From IMG/VR virus record IMGVR_UViG_3300025789_000018: a stretch of 64,000 nucleotides of DNA. The stretch is one strand, 5' to 3'. Numbering within the stretch: the stretch's first letter is position 1; every line of letters begins with the position of its first letter. The position numbers and the translations under genes were made by a program. The DNA comes from a virus (Duplodnaviria; Caudoviricetes). This document shows positions 3,393 to 37,772 of the stretch, piece after piece. The notes under the pieces were generated by a model. It did no database searches. It was not told the DNA's origin and saw only the letters and a program-made list of their open reading frames with translations.

Positions 3393-3460
3393 TATAAATA
3401 AGATGGCTGTCGCGGTATCCCCATACCCACAGCCTCTAACGCTAAACAGGAGCATCAGCT
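3393..3460 (+). promoter_or_regulatory. T4 late promoter plus conserved structured leader of the endonuclease
   Basis: TATAAATA, then stem GGCTGT/ACAGCC enclosing CGC-GGTAT-CCCC-ATACC-C, then TCTAA and AGGAG; same architecture at 11852-11914. Confidence 0.7.
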
Positions 3461-27786: not shown

Positions 27787-27831
27787 GATGGAAGATACAC
27801 TCTTATTTTGATAAATAAAGGATTCGAAAAT

Positions 27832-30845: not shown

Positions 30846-31480
30846 TTAAAATTAATTCCAGACAGTTTATCTACATCAGCAAGAGTAACTTCTGTTACCA
30901 AAGCCTTTGGTATATTGTTTGCTGTATACGATTTAATTGTGCCATCCTTAAGATATACAATCTTGTAGTATAATGTGGGTACAGGAACTTTATGCGCGCC
31001 TATGGTTTTTGGTGTTGAAGAATATACTGCACCAGTAACAACATATTTTGCAGGCATTTCTCTAACATGAGCCTCAAGCATTCTCCAAGATACTCTATTT
31101 ACTGTAGGTTCTTGAGGCGTCATATTTGTCATCAAAAAAGTATCGTGCATTTGACTTTCGGTTGCAGCGTCTGCAGCTGGAGTGAGATGACCTCTATCAA
31201 ATCCCGTGTTGTTATAATCGGACGGAACAGGAGAGTCCTGCAATCTATCATCTGCGTGGAAGTCGTTGGTTCTTTCCACTTTATTTGTGTGGGGCTGAAA
31301 TACTTCTGTCGAGAATAAGGCAGCTTTATGGGAAATATCGTAGACAGTAGCGTAAAAGTTGTTGCAATAAACTGTTGTATCTGATACTGCAACCTCCTTT
31401 CCATTAGGAAAGAATTGGTCACAAGGAGATGCATAAACAGGAGTTGCCCAAAGTAAAACGGCAAATAGAAGTTTTCTCAT
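30842..31480 (-). CDS. DNA/RNA non-specific endonuclease (NucA family) with signal peptide
   Basis: FDRGHLTPAAD, TFLMTNMTPQ, NRxxWxxLE, VPVPTxYYK; N-terminal hydrophobic leader. Confidence 0.9.
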   Translation of the reverse strand: MRKLLFAVLLWATPVYASPCDQFFPNGKEVAVSDTTVYCNNFYATVYDISHKAALFSTEVFQPHTNKVERTNDFHADDRLQDSPVPSDYNNTGFDRGHLTPAADAATESQMHDTFLMTNMTPQEPTVNRVSWRMLEAHVREMPAKYVVTGAVYSSTPKTIGAHKVPVPTLYYKIVYLKDGTIKSYTANNIPKALVTEVTLADVDKLSGINFK

Positions 31481-32574
31481 AAGGTGAATCCTTTAAACGT
31501 GTTTTCATCTACATCTTTGTTGACGCCACCAATTATATATGATGTGATTTCTGTTTCCTGTGGAGCAACTTGTACATCAGAACCAGCAATCCATTTTTGA
31601 GTCCATGGGAGAGGATTAGCACCAGCCTTACCATTAAGACCAATGTTGCCCATACGTTTGGCAGCAATGTGATCAATATAATCACACAGCAACTGTTCGT
31701 TTAAACCAATCATAGACCCATCTTTGAATAGGTAACGAGCCCACGCCTTTTCCTGTGCAACGACATTATAGAACATGCGTATGCACTCATCCCTTGTCTC
31801 ATCAGCAATTTTCGCAAAGTCAGGATCCTCTTTTGGTAGAATCTTGAGGAGCTGCTGAGTCGAGGCCAAGTGAACATTTTCGTCACGGGCAATGAGTTTG
31901 ATAATCTTGGCGTTGCCTTCCATCTTTTTGACTTCGGCAAATGCCCACGAACAGGCGAACGAGACATAGAATCTTACTCCTTCAAGAGCATTGACAGCAT
32001 TGAGACATAGCCAAAGTGCTGTCTTGTGACCGTATATATTTGGAAGCGAAAAGCCTTGAGTATAACCTCTATATGCTACTTCATTATTAAATGCAATCAA
32101 AGCATCATAATACTTACTGATGTCACCGGCACAGTCTACGATTTCTTGGATGTCAAGCATCCCATCAAAAACTCTAGATGGATCAGAGTAAACATTACGA
32201 ATAATGTGTGTATAAGACCTTGAATGGATTGTTTCACTAAATGCCCACGTTTGAATCCAAGTCTCAAGTTCTGGAAGTGAACAAATAGGAAGAAACGCCA
32301 ATGAAGGAGCGCGGCCTTGTACAGAATCCAAGAGTATCTGACGTTTGAGATTACTCGTAAATATGTGCTTTTCATGTTCATTCAATCCCTTAAAATCTTT
32401 ACCGTCTCGAGACAAATCTATTTCTGTTGGTTGCCAGAAAAAAGAATTTTGTTTTTCTGTTAATTTTTCAAAAATAGGATATTTCTGCCGATCGTATCGG
32501 GCAGTATTAACTGTATTGCCGAAGAAACATGTTTCTTTAGTAGCATCATTATATACAGAATTAAATACTGACAT
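31477..32574 (-). CDS. nrdB: ribonucleotide reductase class Ia beta subunit
   Basis: FFWQPTEIDL, LDSVQGR, SETIHSRSY, EGVRFYVSF, IARDENVH, VAPQETEI..Y. Confidence 0.97.
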   Translation of the reverse strand: MSVFNSVYNDATKETCFFGNTVNTARYDRQKYPIFEKLTEKQNSFFWQPTEIDLSRDGKDFKGLNEHEKHIFTSNLKRQILLDSVQGRAPSLAFLPICSLPELETWIQTWAFSETIHSRSYTHIIRNVYSDPSRVFDGMLDIQEIVDCAGDISKYYDALIAFNNEVAYRGYTQGFSLPNIYGHKTALWLCLNAVNALEGVRFYVSFACSWAFAEVKKMEGNAKIIKLIARDENVHLASTQQLLKILPKEDPDFAKIADETRDECIRMFYNVVAQEKAWARYLFKDGSMIGLNEQLLCDYIDHIAAKRMGNIGLNGKAGANPLPWTQKWIAGSDVQVAPQETEITSYIIGGVNKDVDENTFKGFTL

Positions 32575-33142
32575 TAATATGTACCTTCATATGATTTTTG
32601 ACATTAGCTTTTGTTATTTCTTTACCACAAACTTCGCATTGAACTCTTGGTCTGTTCTTTGCTGCTTCTGATATGTTTTTAGCATGGGATTCTGATTTAG
32701 ATTTGAAGTACCCTGTTTTGTTTAATTTTGGTCTAGAAGCTCTTCTTTTTTGTTCTTCAGAGAATTTTTCTGGGTCATTTTCTCGTCGTTTACGTATAGA
32801 ATTCCTCATCTTAATTTTAGATTCTTCTGTATGGAAACGTCCTGTATGGTCTATAGAATTCTGCTGAGAAAATTTTCTTTTTATCCACCCATATGATTTG
32901 TTATTTCTATTTGCCATCATATTTGCAGCATATATTAGTTTATATTCGTTTGGATATATTTTTACTAGCAATAGATGCGCTATATAGTGTTCTTCTGGAA
33001 GAAGATATACTAAATTATCAGAATCGTCATTACCATCCATACACTTAGGAATGATATGGTGCTGTTCATAGTATTTTTGTTTATCTTTCGTTCTATCTAT
33101 GGATTTTTGGATTAATTTGTTATAGTGTGAGCGATAGTCCAT
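32561..33142 (-). mobile_element. mobE: free-standing HNH homing endonuclease (MobE-like) between nrdA and nrdB
   Basis: YYEQHHIIPKCMDG.DD..NLV.L.PEEHYIAH.LL.KIYP; paralog of 20937-21566; T4 mobE position. Confidence 0.8.
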
Positions 33143-33185: not shown

Positions 33186-33674
33186 TTATGGAATACGGAC
33201 ATTTATTTCTTTCTCCATTAGAAAACCATGCTTGTTATGGTCGTAATAGTGTTTTAATAATTTAAGATTGGCAAATCCTAACGATTCATATAGCTTTCTA
33301 GCAGCGATATTATCTTCGCGAACATGTAGCCTTGCATACTTATACTTCATTGTATTGATGAAGTCAAGCACGTTTTCAACAATAATGCGGCCATACCCTT
33401 TGCCGCGATGAGCTTCGGATATGGCCACACTTTGTATATACGTATATCTTCGTTTGCGAATTATCCAGCAGTAACCAATTACTATTTCTGGATTACTCTG
33501 AATAAAAATAGGAGACTTCACAGTTAAGATGAATATCTCATTATCATTAAGAGCCAATTTAATATCTTTTTTGCGAATGATTATGTTCGCATCAAAAGAA
33601 GTCTTTTCTATTGCATAAATTTCTTTAAGATGCTCTTTTGTAGCGAGCTTAAAGGATGGGTTATAGAGCGCCAC
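33186..33674 (-). CDS. GNAT acetyltransferase (RimI-like)
   Basis: IQSVAI...HRGKGYG, LHVREDN..A..LYESLGF. Confidence 0.88.
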   Translation of the reverse strand: MALYNPSFKLATKEHLKEIYAIEKTSFDANIIIRKKDIKLALNDNEIFILTVKSPIFIQSNPEIVIGYCWIIRKRRYTYIQSVAISEAHRGKGYGRIIVENVLDFINTMKYKYARLHVREDNIAARKLYESLGFANLKLLKHYYDHNKHGFLMEKEINVRIP

Positions 33675-33825
33675 TATCTTCGCTAATTACTTCTATAGAG
33701 TATTCAGGAACTTCATTTAGCTTCAGCAAACCCTTATATTCTACAACAAGAGAATTCTTGGGTGTATGGAAATCAATGAGTTCTGAATCATCTAGATGGG
33801 TAGGTGTAACGGTAACATATTCCAT
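33661..33825 (-). CDS. hypothetical protein
   Basis: Manual translation MEYVTVTP..., 54 aa, AGGAG SD. Confidence 0.5.
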   Translation of the reverse strand: MEYVTVTPTHLDDSELIDFHTPKNSLVVEYKGLLKLNEVPEYSIEVISEDSGAL

Positions 33826-33842
33826 TTTATATCTCCTAAAAT

Positions 33843-34853
33843 TTACAACTTACAAGAATCGCAATCAACCTCAGCTTCGTCAACCATACTTATGGGTAAT
33901 GGCTTATCTTCCATTTCTCCAGCACCATCATTAGTGTTGAAGTAGTATAAAGTCTTACCACCATATTTATAGTGCATAAGGATATGCCCAAGGATTTCAG
34001 ACATGGGAATTTTATTATCAGGATAATGTGTTGGATTATATGATGTGTTGACCGATATGGCCTGATCAATAAACTTCTGCAACACAGCCATGATCTTCAG
34101 ATAGCCTTCGGGTGATTTCTGGTCCCATAGCAATTCGTATTTATTCTTTAGTGTACGGATACCAGGTACGACCTGCTTTAGTACACCATCCTTAGACTGC
34201 TTAATTGATACAAGCGCGCGAGGTGGTTCAATACCATTTGTTGAATTACTTATCTGAGCTGATGTCTCTGCTGGCATGAGTGCCATTAGAGTAGAGTTAC
34301 GAATACCAACCGTAGCTGCACGAAGAGCAAGACTGTCCCAATCCATCTTATAGTTTGGTTGAACTAGTTCATCGACTTCCTTCTTGTATGTATCAATAGG
34401 CATGATTCCACCTGAGTAAAGCGTATCAGTATGCTTAGGACATGGATCTACTTCTTCTGCCAAGTCGACCGAGGCTTTGATAAGATAATAACTCCATGCT
34501 TCAGCATACTCATGCACAAGATCGAGATCTGGATCAGAGTAACTGCTATCATTACGAGCCAGCCAATAAGCAAAATTAATGATGCCGATGCCAAGAGGAC
34601 GACGGTTGCGAGTACCAATAGCAGCGGCTCTAACAGGATAGTCTTGATAATCCAGTAGGGCATCCAGAGCGCGTACAGCAATGGTGCATGGCTTTTCGAA
34701 GTCAGCTGGCTTTCTAATCTTTCCCCAATTGATCGCACTTAACGTACACAACGATATTTCTGATTTACAATCAGATTCGAAAACTTCTGTAACATAAACA
34801 TGTTCCTTATCTTTAGTGTCGATACTGTCGACAATTTCATATTTAAAATCCAT
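33843..34853 (-). CDS. nrdA: ribonucleotide reductase alpha subunit, C-terminal fragment (NrdA-b) with novel N-terminal tail
   Basis: About 31-aa non-RNR tail then EISLCTLSAINWG, RRPLGIG, RNSTLMALMPAETS, KTLYY, C-terminal CDSCKL. Confidence 0.93.
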   Translation of the reverse strand: MDFKYEIVDSIDTKDKEHVYVTEVFESDCKSEISLCTLSAINWGKIRKPADFEKPCTIAVRALDALLDYQDYPVRAAAIGTRNRRPLGIGIINFAYWLARNDSSYSDPDLDLVHEYAEAWSYYLIKASVDLAEEVDPCPKHTDTLYSGGIMPIDTYKKEVDELVQPNYKMDWDSLALRAATVGIRNSTLMALMPAETSAQISNSTNGIEPPRALVSIKQSKDGVLKQVVPGIRTLKNKYELLWDQKSPEGYLKIMAVLQKFIDQAISVNTSYNPTHYPDNKIPMSEILGHILMHYKYGGKTLYYFNTNDGAGEMEDKPLPISMVDEAEVDCDSCKL

Positions 34854-35448
34854 TTTGTTTCCTTAAATGCTTTGCTAGATTCCCCAGATCCCATTCACGG
34901 CGGCAGCACACACAACAGGCTTTCTTTCCTTGTAAGTGTTTCGTGCCATTGGGCTGTTTTTTAAGATTATACTTACCGCGTTTCTTTCCTAATTTTGCTA
35001 ACCGCATCTTTTCTTTAGTTTCATCTGACGCCTTGACAACACCGACTAAACCTTTATTCCAGGCTTTTTGACCCATATGACCTAAAGAATTGTTGATTCT
35101 ATGTTCCGTCGATTGCGGACCTATCTTTCTACCTTTAGTTTTTATACTCATGGCGGCATAATCTCTAAAAGCAGACGTATCTCCACCACTTCCATTTTCT
35201 TCAATAAAATTAGCCCAGTTAGGAGAATTAACCACATCCCATAATTTGGAATAGTATAACCCTTGTTCTTTTATTTCTAATATATCATCAGATTGAAATA
35301 GAATCTCTGTCTCAATATCTTTACCATATTTGTTCAGTTCTCTTTTCCATCTCTTCCCTGAACCCAGGTATTCGAACGGATTTTGTTCTGTCTTACCAAG
35401 ATATTTAAGTCCAGTAACTTTATGCGTTTTAACATATAGTGTAATCAT
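34843..35448 (-). mobile_element. GIY-YIG homing endonuclease splitting nrdA
   Basis: LYVKTH..TGLKYLGKT...Y.GSG..W; NUMOD-like GQKAWNKGL and ETKEKMR.AKLGK. Confidence 0.88.
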
Positions 35449-35476
35449 AGTAGTGTTCTCCTCACTACTATTTATA
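35448..35476 (-). promoter_or_regulatory. late promoter overlapping an RBS/start-sequestering hairpin
   Basis: TATAAA-TAGTAGTG-AGGAGAA-CACTACTA-TG: 8-bp stem, SD in the loop, A of ATG in the stem. Confidence 0.8.
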
Positions 35477-35478
35477 CT

Positions 35479-36933
35479 TTATCTGCTTTTAATTGGGGTG
35501 TTTAGATTATTTTTCTTCCATTCAAGATATTTTTGATACTCTTCTTTAGTCATTTTCATTGTTTTGACTACTGGGGCACCATCATTAATATCCTTTAAAG
35601 GTGTGGTGGGAAGTGTAATTTCCGCGCAGAGATTGCTCATCTTGATCAATGCCTTCTTTTTGTCAAATGAACCATGATCATTGGCATGGTCAACATTCAT
35701 CAGATAGATTCGTCCTGTATCTTTTCGCTCCTGAGCGAAGGCGCTGAATAGATCAATTGCAGGGATGCTTTTCTTTCTGATCTTTCCATTTCGTTCATAC
35801 TTCTCGTAAAGAGTACGGAACTTCTCAACATCAGAAAAGAATGCCTGGTAGAGATCCGGGCAGTCATGAGGTGAAAAGAGGGTGATATTACCTCCAGAAA
35901 GAAGTCTTTCATACATTACCTTATTAAACTGCACGCCATAATCAAGATGACGAACTCGGTTATCTTCAGTACCCTTATTGTTCTTAAGTACCAGAAGATC
36001 TTCTACTTCTAGATGCCAAATGGGATAATAGAGAGTAGCTGCCCCACCCCGAACCCCACCTTGGCTGCAGGATTTAACAGATGATTGCCAAAGACGATAA
36101 TAAGGAACAACGCCAGTAGTAATAACAGAACCATTACGAACAGGGCTATTAACGGCACGAAGACTGCCGCCGCCAATACCAATACCAGCTTTGTTAGCAA
36201 CGTATCTACCGATAGCCGTAGCACTAGCAAAAATCGAGTTAAGCGAGTCATCCGATTCGATGAGAACGCAGGAAGAGAATTGGCGGTCTGGAGTACGGAC
36301 ACCAGCCATAATAGGAGTAGGAAGGCTAATGTCGAATAGAGATAATGCATCATAAAGTTCCTTTACCCACTTAGTGCGGTCTGTTTTATAGTTCTGAAAA
36401 AGAGTCATGGCAATCAACATGAACGCCATCTGAGGCGTTTCATAAAACTGGCCAGTTTCTCTCGATTTTACTAGATACTTTCCACGAAACTGCTCCATTG
36501 CAGCATAGGTAAGAAGATTGTCTCGAGTATGATCAATGTATTTTCCAAGGTCAATCCATTCTTCATGACTATATGCAGTGTTTAGCTGCGGATCATAATA
36601 TCCAGCGCGCATAACAGCATCATAATGCATTAGTAGTGAATTTGGCTCATACTGACCATAAACTTGCTTACGAAGATTATAGTTGATTAGGCGACCAGCA
36701 ACGTATTGGTAATTAGGAGCGTCTTCATCAATAAGATCAGCAGCAGCCTTAATAAGAGTTTCCTGAATATCAGAAGTCTTAATTCCATTATAAAACTGAA
36801 TATGCGTCTTAATTTCAAGATCTGAAACAGAAACACCAGCCAAACCTTCACACGCAAATTCAGCTACTTTATGGAACTTATTAAGATCTAGCGTCTCTTT
36901 AGTTCCATCGCGCTTAATCACAAAAATCGTCAT
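35479..36933 (-). CDS. nrdA: ribonucleotide reductase alpha subunit, N-terminal fragment (NrdA-a) with novel C-terminal tail
   Basis: ATP cone VIKRDG, PTPIMAGVRT, QFSSCVL, QGGVRGG, SNLCAEITLPT, then about 33-aa non-RNR tail and stop. Confidence 0.95.
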   Translation of the reverse strand: MTIFVIKRDGTKETLDLNKFHKVAEFACEGLAGVSVSDLEIKTHIQFYNGIKTSDIQETLIKAAADLIDEDAPNYQYVAGRLINYNLRKQVYGQYEPNSLLMHYDAVMRAGYYDPQLNTAYSHEEWIDLGKYIDHTRDNLLTYAAMEQFRGKYLVKSRETGQFYETPQMAFMLIAMTLFQNYKTDRTKWVKELYDALSLFDISLPTPIMAGVRTPDRQFSSCVLIESDDSLNSIFASATAIGRYVANKAGIGIGGGSLRAVNSPVRNGSVITTGVVPYYRLWQSSVKSCSQGGVRGGAATLYYPIWHLEVEDLLVLKNNKGTEDNRVRHLDYGVQFNKVMYERLLSGGNITLFSPHDCPDLYQAFFSDVEKFRTLYEKYERNGKIRKKSIPAIDLFSAFAQERKDTGRIYLMNVDHANDHGSFDKKKALIKMSNLCAEITLPTTPLKDINDGAPVVKTMKMTKEEYQKYLEWKKNNLNTPIKSR

Positions 36934-37096
36934 CAGTAACCCTTCTGTATAATTTATCAACTTTTTGTTCTAGCTTATTTATTCTAGCTAGAAGGTGCGG
37001 AACACAACTATGAACCTGATACTCACCATCTTTGATCTCTTGGTTGCAGAGAGAACAACTTATTTTACTCTCTGTATAAATGAAGTCACGAATCAT
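36914..37096 (-). CDS. hypothetical protein
   Basis: 60-aa ORF with CxxC. Confidence 0.5.
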   Translation of the reverse strand: MIRDFIYTESKISCSLCNQEIKDGEYQVHSCVPHLLARINKLEQKVDKLYRRVTDDDFCD

Positions 37097-37772
37097 TCTT
37101 CAATGCCTCAATAATAGCAGGGAAGCGTTCACCAATGATTTCCCAGCACTGTTCTGCTACGATACGATGTTCCTTCTGTGTTGCTTTGTCCATGCGAATC
37201 TGACAGTAGTGAACCCAAGAGCGAAGCGAACCAGACATAATAAGCACAGATTCCATCATACCCTCCGGCAGTACTCCTCTTGCAACTTCCTTAGCAACAC
37301 CATTTTCGATTGCCCATTTATAGGATTTCAATGCTGCCCTTTTGACAATATCTTGCGCATCGTCCCATAATGCTTCCAGATAAATATCATCTACATCAAC
37401 ACTATTCTGACGGTTCTTTGGATCCTGCAAACGCGCTTCACGAGTAACGAACTTCAAGTCCTTAGTGGGATCAGCATAACGCTGGCTATACTCTTGAAAC
37501 GAGAACGAACGATGACGAAGAATCTGTCGGGCAATGTCGCGTGTGGTCTTAATCTCCATTGAGATATGGACCATTTCAAGGGGTGACCAATGCTGATTTG
37601 TGATCAGATACTTGAGCAGCTTTGGTGCAGTCTGTGTGTTGTTCTGGTTTGATGGATTCGATACACGGGCACACCATGCCACTAGTTCGGATGCATCTGT
37701 ACAACCAGTATACTCATAATCAGGCTGAGTAATGCCTACAAGATTAACACTGCTCATAATCATCACTTTCAT
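37086..37772 (-). CDS. thyX: FAD-dependent thymidylate synthase
   Basis: HWSPLE, IARQILRHRSFSFQEYSQRY, E.AR.VLP, GSLRSW.HY. Confidence 0.95.
   Translation of the reverse strand: MKVMIMSSVNLVGITQPDYEYTGCTDASELVAWCARVSNPSNQNNTQTAPKLLKYLITNQHWSPLEMVHISMEIKTTRDIARQILRHRSFSFQEYSQRYADPTKDLKFVTREARLQDPKNRQNSVDVDDIYLEALWDDAQDIVKRAALKSYKWAIENGVAKEVARGVLPEGMMESVLIMSGSLRSWVHYCQIRMDKATQKEHRIVAEQCWEIIGERFPAIIEALKNDS

Follow-up and report, generated by a model that had tools for sequence, protein, structure and literature searches.

Basic and acidic coding tails at a class Ia nrdA gene split by a predicted Seg-like GIY-YIG endonuclease gene in an uncultured T4-like phage

The split nrdA locus

The DNA dealt with here is a stretch of 64,000 nucleotides from the virus record IMGVR_UViG_3300025789_000018 (Caudoviricetes), called the window from here on. 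It belongs to an uncultured T4-like phage that encodes a gp43-type DNA polymerase, UvsX, a gp41-type helicase, a gp61-type primase and ThyX, and it is present in freshwater metagenomes (the sequencing runs listed are of DNA only, with no RNA run among them). On the minus strand of the window the gene that encodes the large subunit of a class Ia ribonucleotide reductase (RNR), nrdA, lies in two pieces, nrdA-a (36933..35479) and nrdA-b (33843..34853), which are separated by the gene for a predicted free-standing Seg-like homing endonuclease of the GIY-YIG type (34843..35448). At the break each half carries an extension, or tail, that is absent from intact relatives. An earlier note on this DNA had placed the three open reading frames (ORFs) on this strand, at these positions and in this order, which is how they were found.

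NrdA-a (484 amino acids; ATG at 36933, stop codon at 35479-35481) is the N-terminal half of the subunit and contains the ATP-cone (PF03477), the all-alpha domain (PF00317) and positions 1-222 of the 523 positions of the PF02867 barrel; NrdA-b (336 amino acids) is the C-terminal half and covers barrel positions 213-523. NrdA-a retains the equivalent of Cys225 and the SNLCAE motif (Asn/Cys/Glu), and NrdA-b retains EISLC with the equivalent of Cys462, the YY pair and the C-terminal CxxC; apart from the Cys225 equivalent, all of these motifs had already been read correctly in the earlier note. The split falls into the loop that joins the barrel strand of the thiyl-radical Cys (Cys439 equivalent) to that of the redox Cys (Cys462 equivalent). 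Across this site intact relatives have the sequence ...LPTTPLKDI(N/H)DExGEISLC..., so that the break costs only 2-3 loop residues.

The conserved core of NrdA-a continues past LPT through ...LPTTPLKDINDG, and tail-a therefore comprises only the last 32 residues (35482..35577), which are basic. The earlier note was right that there is such a tail, but had let it begin too early, from LPT onward. Tail-b is acidic and comprises the first 31 residues of NrdA-b (34761..34853). The endonuclease ORF and nrdA-b overlap by 11 nt, and nrdA-b has a Shine-Dalgarno (SD) sequence of its own, AAGGA (34860..34864), as had been noted; it sits within the last codons of the endonuclease gene, with a spacer of 6 nt to the ATG of nrdA-b, and not at the endonuclease stop codon.

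The predicted endonuclease and its putative control region

The 201-residue endonuclease is predicted to consist of a catalytic domain (residues 1-85), a NUMOD3-like linker and a Cys-rich, DNA-binding C-terminal end. Searched alone against Pfam, it did not reach PF01541 or PF19835 even at an E-value of 10 and gave only a weak NUMOD3 match; these two families were matched by 3 and 5, respectively, of 14 aligned relatives. The protein has matches in phrog_314 ('homing endonuclease', 1.3e-9) and among Seg-like rhizobiophage genes. Its membership in the GIY-YIG family, proposed in the earlier note, was borne out by the motif alignment, by profile and BLASTP searches and by the predicted fold. When the family was aligned with canonical GIY-YIG/NUMOD3 relatives, Y5, Y16, G18 and N80 were invariant; the sequence KRWKRE resembles the region of Arg27 in I-TevI, and a Glu aligns in the helix preceding N80. 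The GIY...YIG pair is present at a spacing of about 11 residues in a divergent form (LYV...YLG). The family profile matched the catalytic domain of I-TevI (1LN0) at an E-value of 3e-5, and BLASTP against the Pfam-positive GIY-YIG gene of the relative L006 (see below) gave 3e-6. In the AlphaFold2 (AF2) model, residues 1-85 have a predicted local distance difference test score (pLDDT) of 85-94, and the top three matches in the PDB are I-TevI (probability 1.00, template-modelling score 0.67-0.69). The endonuclease thus shares with T4 I-TevI and the Seg endonucleases the catalytic fold and motifs, the NUMOD3-like linker and the layout of late promoter and hairpin, and differs from them in the divergent LYV...YLG motif and the Cys-rich C-terminal end.

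The box TATAAATA, which resembles a T4-type late promoter, directly follows the stop codon of nrdA-a (35476-35469, minus strand), directly upstream of the endonuclease gene, and overlaps the 5' arm of a hairpin of 9 bp (35447..35471, minus strand) whose loop contains the endonuclease SD sequence AGGAGAA and whose 3' arm takes in the AU of the start codon. This hairpin at the ribosome binding site (RBS) has a folding energy of -15.6 kcal/mol (z -4.05), and none of 200 shuffled sequences was as stable. Box and hairpin are kept in the relatives L004 and L015, where an A:U pair is changed to U:A in a compensatory manner, and in L016, where they stand ahead of a different N-terminal domain. The window contains 14 TATAAATA boxes where 5 are expected, several of them directly before ORFs, a placement that agrees with late promoters of the T4 type in this phage. 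Such sites are found at 3393, 11852, 25084, 27779 and 46172, among others; one of them precedes the gene of the virion protein at 27808 by 22 nt.

Control by a hairpin and a late promoter is known for I-TevI of phage T4 and for mobE of the Aeromonas phage Aeh1, in which an HNH endonuclease gene divides nrdA (nrdA-a/mobE/nrdA-b), as reportedly described by Friedrich et al. in 2007. Judged from this precedent and from the anatomy of the region, the hairpin would mask the endonuclease start in early read-through transcripts, and late transcripts, which would start a few nucleotides past TATAAATA, would lack the 5' arm and allow the endonuclease to be translated. The same scheme was also noted for fractured genes from metagenomes (PMC2677866).

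In some of the relatives the endonuclease gene has decayed or been rebuilt. In L017 (4001-4264) it is reduced to an in-frame remnant of 87 amino acids, and the late-promoter box is mutated to TATAAATG; in L016 (2936-3811) another GIY-type N-terminal domain is joined to the same C-terminal DNA-binding end; and L002 (4409-5011) has an endonuclease of the L016 type that is truncated N-terminally. Since both tails and the split persist in all three, an intact endonuclease is not required for the split to be stable. The end of the endonuclease gene that overlaps the SD sequence and start of nrdA-b is always retained in these three, which hints at a translational coupling with nrdA-b.

The tails form a conserved family

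Relatives were collected by a length-restricted search with NrdA-b (core identity 65-90%). The set used for the tree contains three states of NrdA, namely intact fragments (52), sequences with a C-intein at SNL|C (27) and sequences with an acidic tail homologous to that of the window (34). Both tails are conserved among relatives with 65-80% NrdA identity. In tail-a (charge +4.8, isoelectric point 9.9), 16 of the 32 positions are invariant across 12 relatives; in tail-b (charge -5.4, isoelectric point 4.35), Y20 never varies, E26 does not vary in A1 and A2 and hardly does so in A6, and F3, E6 and V8 vary little or not at all.

For the tails of equal length, combined, the proportion of non-synonymous differences (pN) is 0.06-0.17, that of synonymous differences (pS) 0.3-0.7, and the ratio of the two rates (dN/dS) 0.06-0.18; taken separately, dN/dS is 0.04-0.21 for tail-a and about 0.09-0.12 for tail-b. 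The comparison was restricted to equal-length tails, and the core values are unreliable because the ungapped windows were shifted by indels. The low ratios, together with many synonymous changes, indicate that the tails are translated and under selection.

The allele of the window occurs in 17 contigs from several samples. A search of 50,697 deposited phage genomes for near-identical DNA yielded a single match of 40 nt, and tblastn with each tail plus the adjacent core matched only the core part in the deposited phages, from which it follows that these tails are absent from the cultured phages of that collection. A profile of tail-b plus EISLC, run against 1.84 billion representative sequences, found five matches, of which four are NrdA-b fragments and the fifth is a repetitive, acidic low-complexity protein; neither another context nor an intact NrdA with a tail insert came up among these representatives, whose clustering at 50% may conceal members. 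The tails are homologous throughout the family and as such have a single origin within this metagenomic family, with flanking nrdA sequences of many histories. They are therefore not de novo additions, as the earlier note had it, but an old and conserved family that is spread over many metagenomic phages and moves with the endonuclease.

Probable mobility of the cassette

The relative L011 has the same endonuclease and the same first 110 codons of nrdA-b as the window, and its NrdA-a is only 77.5% identical. Along the DNA, identity between the two jumps from 60-80% to 97-100% at about 35588; the frequent mismatches cease within three codons of the junction between the NrdA-a core and tail-a. 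With L012, a block of 96-100% identity extends from 35589 to about 35109 and spans tail-a, the promoter and hairpin, and the catalytic domain, flanked by DNA of 56-79% identity upstream and 52-56% downstream. For the two relatives together, the rise is from about 65-70% to 96-100% and coincides with the first codon of the tail. In the more distant relatives L004 and L015, all three genes have diverged together (66-73%).

In a tree of the NrdA-b cores, calculated without the columns of tail and intein, the intact, intein and tail states are interleaved, and the tail state has changed at least nine times on well-supported branches. The NrdA-b core of the window is nearest to that of P0002, which is of the intein type (92%). 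Forcing the 34 tail rows into one clade (P0054 and P0112 were left out of this constrained test) cost 840 log-likelihood units, and monophyly was rejected (approximately unbiased test, p 1.4e-113). The pattern suggests that the mobile DNA includes the tails, a conserved cargo that appears to be widespread in freshwater T4-like phages.

Other elements have entered nrdA in relatives. L006 (2641-6062), L007 and P0002-P0004, whose NrdA-b cores are 87-92% identical to that of the window, contain a split intein at the thiyl Cys (SNL|C) with a Pfam-positive GIY-YIG gene for 233 amino acids between the halves, a competing element that lies 19 codons upstream of the insertion in the window. In L002 (1619-4392; a contig of 156 kb from JGI 3300021138), P0129 and P0131, NrdA is in three pieces; besides the tailed split they have an atypically split intein at ...KSC|C, with an N-intein of 13 amino acids (CLTPETWVEVIEE), a C-intein of about 130 amino acids that ends with THN|SQGG and, between the two, a GIY-like gene for 277 amino acids (DUF7487).

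A search within nrdA for target-site duplications or tail-like copies gave short matches at chance level only. An exact repeat of 12 nt that encodes NDGA, found at the core/tail-a junction (35576-35587) and near the 3' end of nrdA-b (33922-33933), is probably meaningless, because chance alone would yield about 0.3 matches of this kind in 3 kb.

Predicted assembly of the two halves

The complex of the two full-length halves was predicted from family alignments in three runs with three controls. The interface score ipSAE (interaction prediction score from aligned errors) was 0.92 (0.94, 0.92 and 0.92 in the individual runs), that of the best control 0.00, and the pLDDT of the partner 88; the runs share at least 87% of their contacts. 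The mark set for ipSAE is reached by 58 of 80 solved complexes and by 2 of 110 mismatched pairs. Such a result was to be expected, since solved NrdA structures exist, and it speaks for likeness to the intact barrel rather than for binding. The confidently modelled interface includes residues 453-472 and 480-483 of tail-a and residues 1-11 and 17-31 of tail-b, which suggests that the tails pack at the a/b junction.

The multimer model, a check proposed in the earlier note, puts both tails into the interface. The note had also regarded the tails as a heterodimerisation module, and this is not what was found with Aeh1. There the tails are dispensable for the a/b heterodimer and are required for the dimer of heterodimers, (a/b)2, and for the holoenzyme, and the split enzyme is fully active (PMC3045599).

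Neighbouring genes

Upstream of nrdA-a lies thyX (37772..37086, minus strand), the end of which is overlapped, as is the start of nrdA-a, by an ORF for 60 amino acids (37096..36914, minus strand). This small ORF has a zinc-ribbon-like CxxC...HxC spacing and was called as a gene in all of L041-L046, which are contigs of the same phage. Downstream of nrdA-b follow, all on the minus strand, an ORF for 54 amino acids (33825..33661), a GNAT acetyltransferase gene (33186..33674) that stands between nrdA-b and nrdB and thus outside the split, a gene for a MobE-like HNH homing endonuclease (32561..33142) and an intact nrdB for the small subunit of RNR (31477..32574), the start of which overlaps the HNH gene by 14 nt. 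That a separate MobE-like HNH gene precedes nrdB had been seen in the earlier note; it matches phrog_655 (3.8e-49), is 47% identical to the N-terminus of Aeh1 MobE and ends in a C2H2-like zinc finger. In relatives, the spacer between nrdA and nrdB is filled differently, with an ORF for 38 or 65 amino acids or with more GIY-YIG genes, and therefore appears to be a second such hot spot, like the one of mobE in T4.

Comparison with Aeh1 and other fragmented genes

The split nrdA of Aeh1 was described as unique among 1200 nrdA sequences (PMC3045599), and in a survey of phage RNR genes it was the only nrdA that was split by an endonuclease gene and contained no intein (PMC3653736). A full-text search of the literature for split or fragmented nrdA after 2011 revealed no further case.

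The gene of the window is built in much the same way, as the earlier note had recognized. In both phages a class Ia nrdA is split in the same Cys439-Cys462 loop without intron or intein, the halves are separated by a free-standing homing endonuclease gene, which overlaps the start of nrdA-b, a TATAAATA box and an RBS hairpin precede the endonuclease gene, and tails of about 30 amino acids are basic on NrdA-a and acidic on NrdA-b (in Aeh1 with isoelectric points of 10.4 and 3.8; PMC3045599). The C-side junction is identical, with the tail followed by EISLC. The two differ in the endonuclease, which in Aeh1 is the HNH enzyme MobE and in the window is a Seg-like GIY-YIG enzyme from another family, as had been pointed out, with the MobE-like gene standing apart before nrdB. 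They differ at the N-side junction, where the Aeh1 core ends with LPTVPMG, about 5 residues earlier than that of the window, which ends with LPTTPLKDINDG; and Aeh1 is a single phage, whereas here there is a large and diverse family with signs of horizontal spread.

The resemblance raises the question of common ancestry: one ancient split with its pair of tails could have been inherited by both, the endonuclease having been swapped later and the tails having diverged past recognition. T-even phages offer a precedent for a swap, in that segH and hef replace mobC and mobE. Within the family of the window, N-terminal domains of the endonuclease have demonstrably been exchanged, and the MobE-like gene is found only 1.7 kb downstream; the shared loop, the identical C-side junction and the same charge polarity at similar length (PMC3045599) are in line with such a history. 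The alignment of the tails with those of Aeh1 and other split NrdAs, proposed in the earlier note, yielded clear homologues in the metagenomic family and no significant match to Aeh1. The family hidden Markov models (HMMs) scored the Aeh1 tails no better than shuffled sequences (3644 of 5000 shuffles were as good for tail-b and 1110 of 5000 for tail-a); global alignment gave p 0.62 for tail-a, and for tail-b it gave a borderline p 0.049, with 146 of 3000 shuffles doing as well, compared with 1 of 3000 in a control within the family. A likeness of tail-b to the Aeh1 tail and to the start of a C-intein, noticed by eye, was dropped after these shuffle-controlled tests. With the N-side junctions being different and the NrdA cores being only about 48-50% identical, we consider descent from a common split unlikely. 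The same charge pattern without significant similarity of the tails leads us to favour, as did the earlier note, an origin independent of Aeh1, which would mean that short, oppositely charged tails evolved convergently at this same loop.

Split-intein forms of NrdA with GIY-YIG or Vsr-like endonucleases have been described from ocean metagenomes (Dassa et al. 2009, PMC2677866), and L006 and the other intein-type relatives of the window are arranged in this way. These fractured genes (NrdA-1 to NrdA-7) also have the order N-terminal half, endonuclease, C-terminal half; the endonuclease is often of the GIY-YIG type, is preceded by a hairpin and TATAAATA, and overlaps the downstream half with its end. 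Unlike the element of the window, they are inserted at SNL|C, and their N- and C-intein halves are complete and would be expected to trans-splice; the element of the window lies 19 codons further downstream and has tails of 32 and 31 amino acids without intein motifs. Essential enzymes that are split by a free-standing endonuclease gene and reassemble non-covalently are also the gp39/gp60 topoisomerase with mobA and the gp43 polymerase of Aeromonas phage 25 with a GIY-YIG gene (PMC3045599, PMC2677866). Tail-like extensions were noted in gp39/gp60, the host genes are other ones, and no conserved mobile tail cassette was described.

Inteins, introns and decay as alternative explanations

In the nrdA of the window, the split is one without intron or intein. 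PF14890, the intein family of Pfam, matches neither half of NrdA, although it does detect the inteins of close relatives; position 1 of tail-a is neither Cys nor Ser (it is Ala, Gly, Lys or others across the family), tail-b ends with ...CKS before the Glu, without HN plus nucleophile, and the two tails sum to 63 amino acids compared with about 130 or more for a Hint domain.

The tails could nevertheless be what is left of a split intein that has decayed into a module for non-covalent association only, an origin that was among those considered for Aeh1 by Crona et al. (PMC3045599). The nearest relatives do have a true split intein with a GIY-YIG gene in the same gene, only 19 codons upstream, split-intein halves also pair via opposite charges (PMC2677866), and the two-strand, VY-containing pattern of tail-b recalls the start of a C-intein. 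This resemblance did not stand up to comparison: when the C-intein of L006 was tested with the tail-b HMM, 3497 of 5000 shuffles were as good, and in global alignment 1355 of 3000. In addition, the insertion sites differ (SNL|C as against DINDG|...|EISLC), and the tail-b profile led only to NrdA-b fragments and the low-complexity protein mentioned above. We therefore regard an intein remnant as very unlikely.

It is harder still to believe that the split nrdA is a non-functional gene and that the phage uses the RNR of its host or another RNR. Such a view would draw on the fact that RNR activity is deduced here and that the RNR gene content was read from the window only; against it stand the catalytic and radical-transfer residues, all of which are kept across the two halves, the intact nrdB downstream, the intact state of both ORFs in dozens of relatives at 65-80% identity, the purifying selection on tails and core and the full activity of the Aeh1 precedent (PMC3045599).

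Least credible of all is the restoration of a contiguous NrdA by a group I intron or by protein trans-splicing, even though group I introns and inteins are classically found in the RNR genes of phages (PMC3653736) and reading on in frame into an intron can produce what looks like a tail, for a search of positions 33500-37200 with Rfam revealed no intron family at E-values up to 10, the roughly 90 nt from the endonuclease stop to the place at which homology to NrdA sets in again are insufficient for an intron core, the tails are conserved as protein with many synonymous changes, and motifs and length of an intein are absent.

A probable mobile cassette with its own tails

We consider it likely that the window contains a class Ia RNR in pieces that was made by a mobile cassette consisting of tail-a, the late promoter with the RBS hairpin, the Seg-like GIY-YIG gene and tail-b. 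The two polypeptides would be translated separately and would join non-covalently to form one composite alpha subunit. Tail-a, which is basic, and tail-b, which is acidic, would meet at the junction and may stabilize either the a/b pair or, as in Aeh1, the dimer of such pairs, or both of these, and the assembly stabilized in this way would render the insertion phenotypically neutral. As the mosaic identity and the phylogeny suggest, the endonuclease would cut the cassette-free nrdA of co-infecting relatives, and repair would copy the whole cassette together with its tails. Because the whole cassette would be copied, the tails would be cargo of the selfish element, with a role that parallels that of splicing for introns and inteins.

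Several points weigh against this explanation. The function of the split RNR in this uncultured phage is read from sequence and models, and cleavage and target site of the endonuclease are putative. The sharp identity boundaries and the polyphyletic tails could come from ordinary recombination at a conserved stretch, with no part played by the endonuclease. When NrdA-b is modelled alone with AF2, its mean pLDDT is 60.7 and that of its tail 31-55. Finally, since a/b pairing does without the tails in Aeh1, the tail contacts in the model may miss the place where the tails matter.

The wider claim, on which we are nearly though not quite evenly divided, is that the unit of tail, endonuclease and tail is a distinct type of selfish element and represents, beside introns and inteins, a third route of harmless invasion. 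Its coding tails would act as adaptors that re-tether the halves; it would home among freshwater T4-like phages, outlast the decay of its endonuclease or the replacement of domains, and compete with the split intein for the hot spot in nrdA, and the Aeh1 system would be a case of convergence.

For almost twenty years the split RNR of Aeh1 was a lone curiosity, and its authors could only speculate that the tails are a general antidote to gene fragmentation that arrives with the endonuclease. The window and its relatives add a second pair of tails with unrelated sequence, in the same loop and with a different class of endonuclease, dozens of natural tail variants with which it can be tested which features matter, evidence at the level of populations for tails in mobile DNA, and alleles that are still split after their endonuclease has decayed. 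Intact, split-intein and tailed-split states are found side by side in one phage group and in one active-site region. The three coexisting states provide a natural system in which the competition between selfish elements and the tolerance of a protein to fission can be studied.

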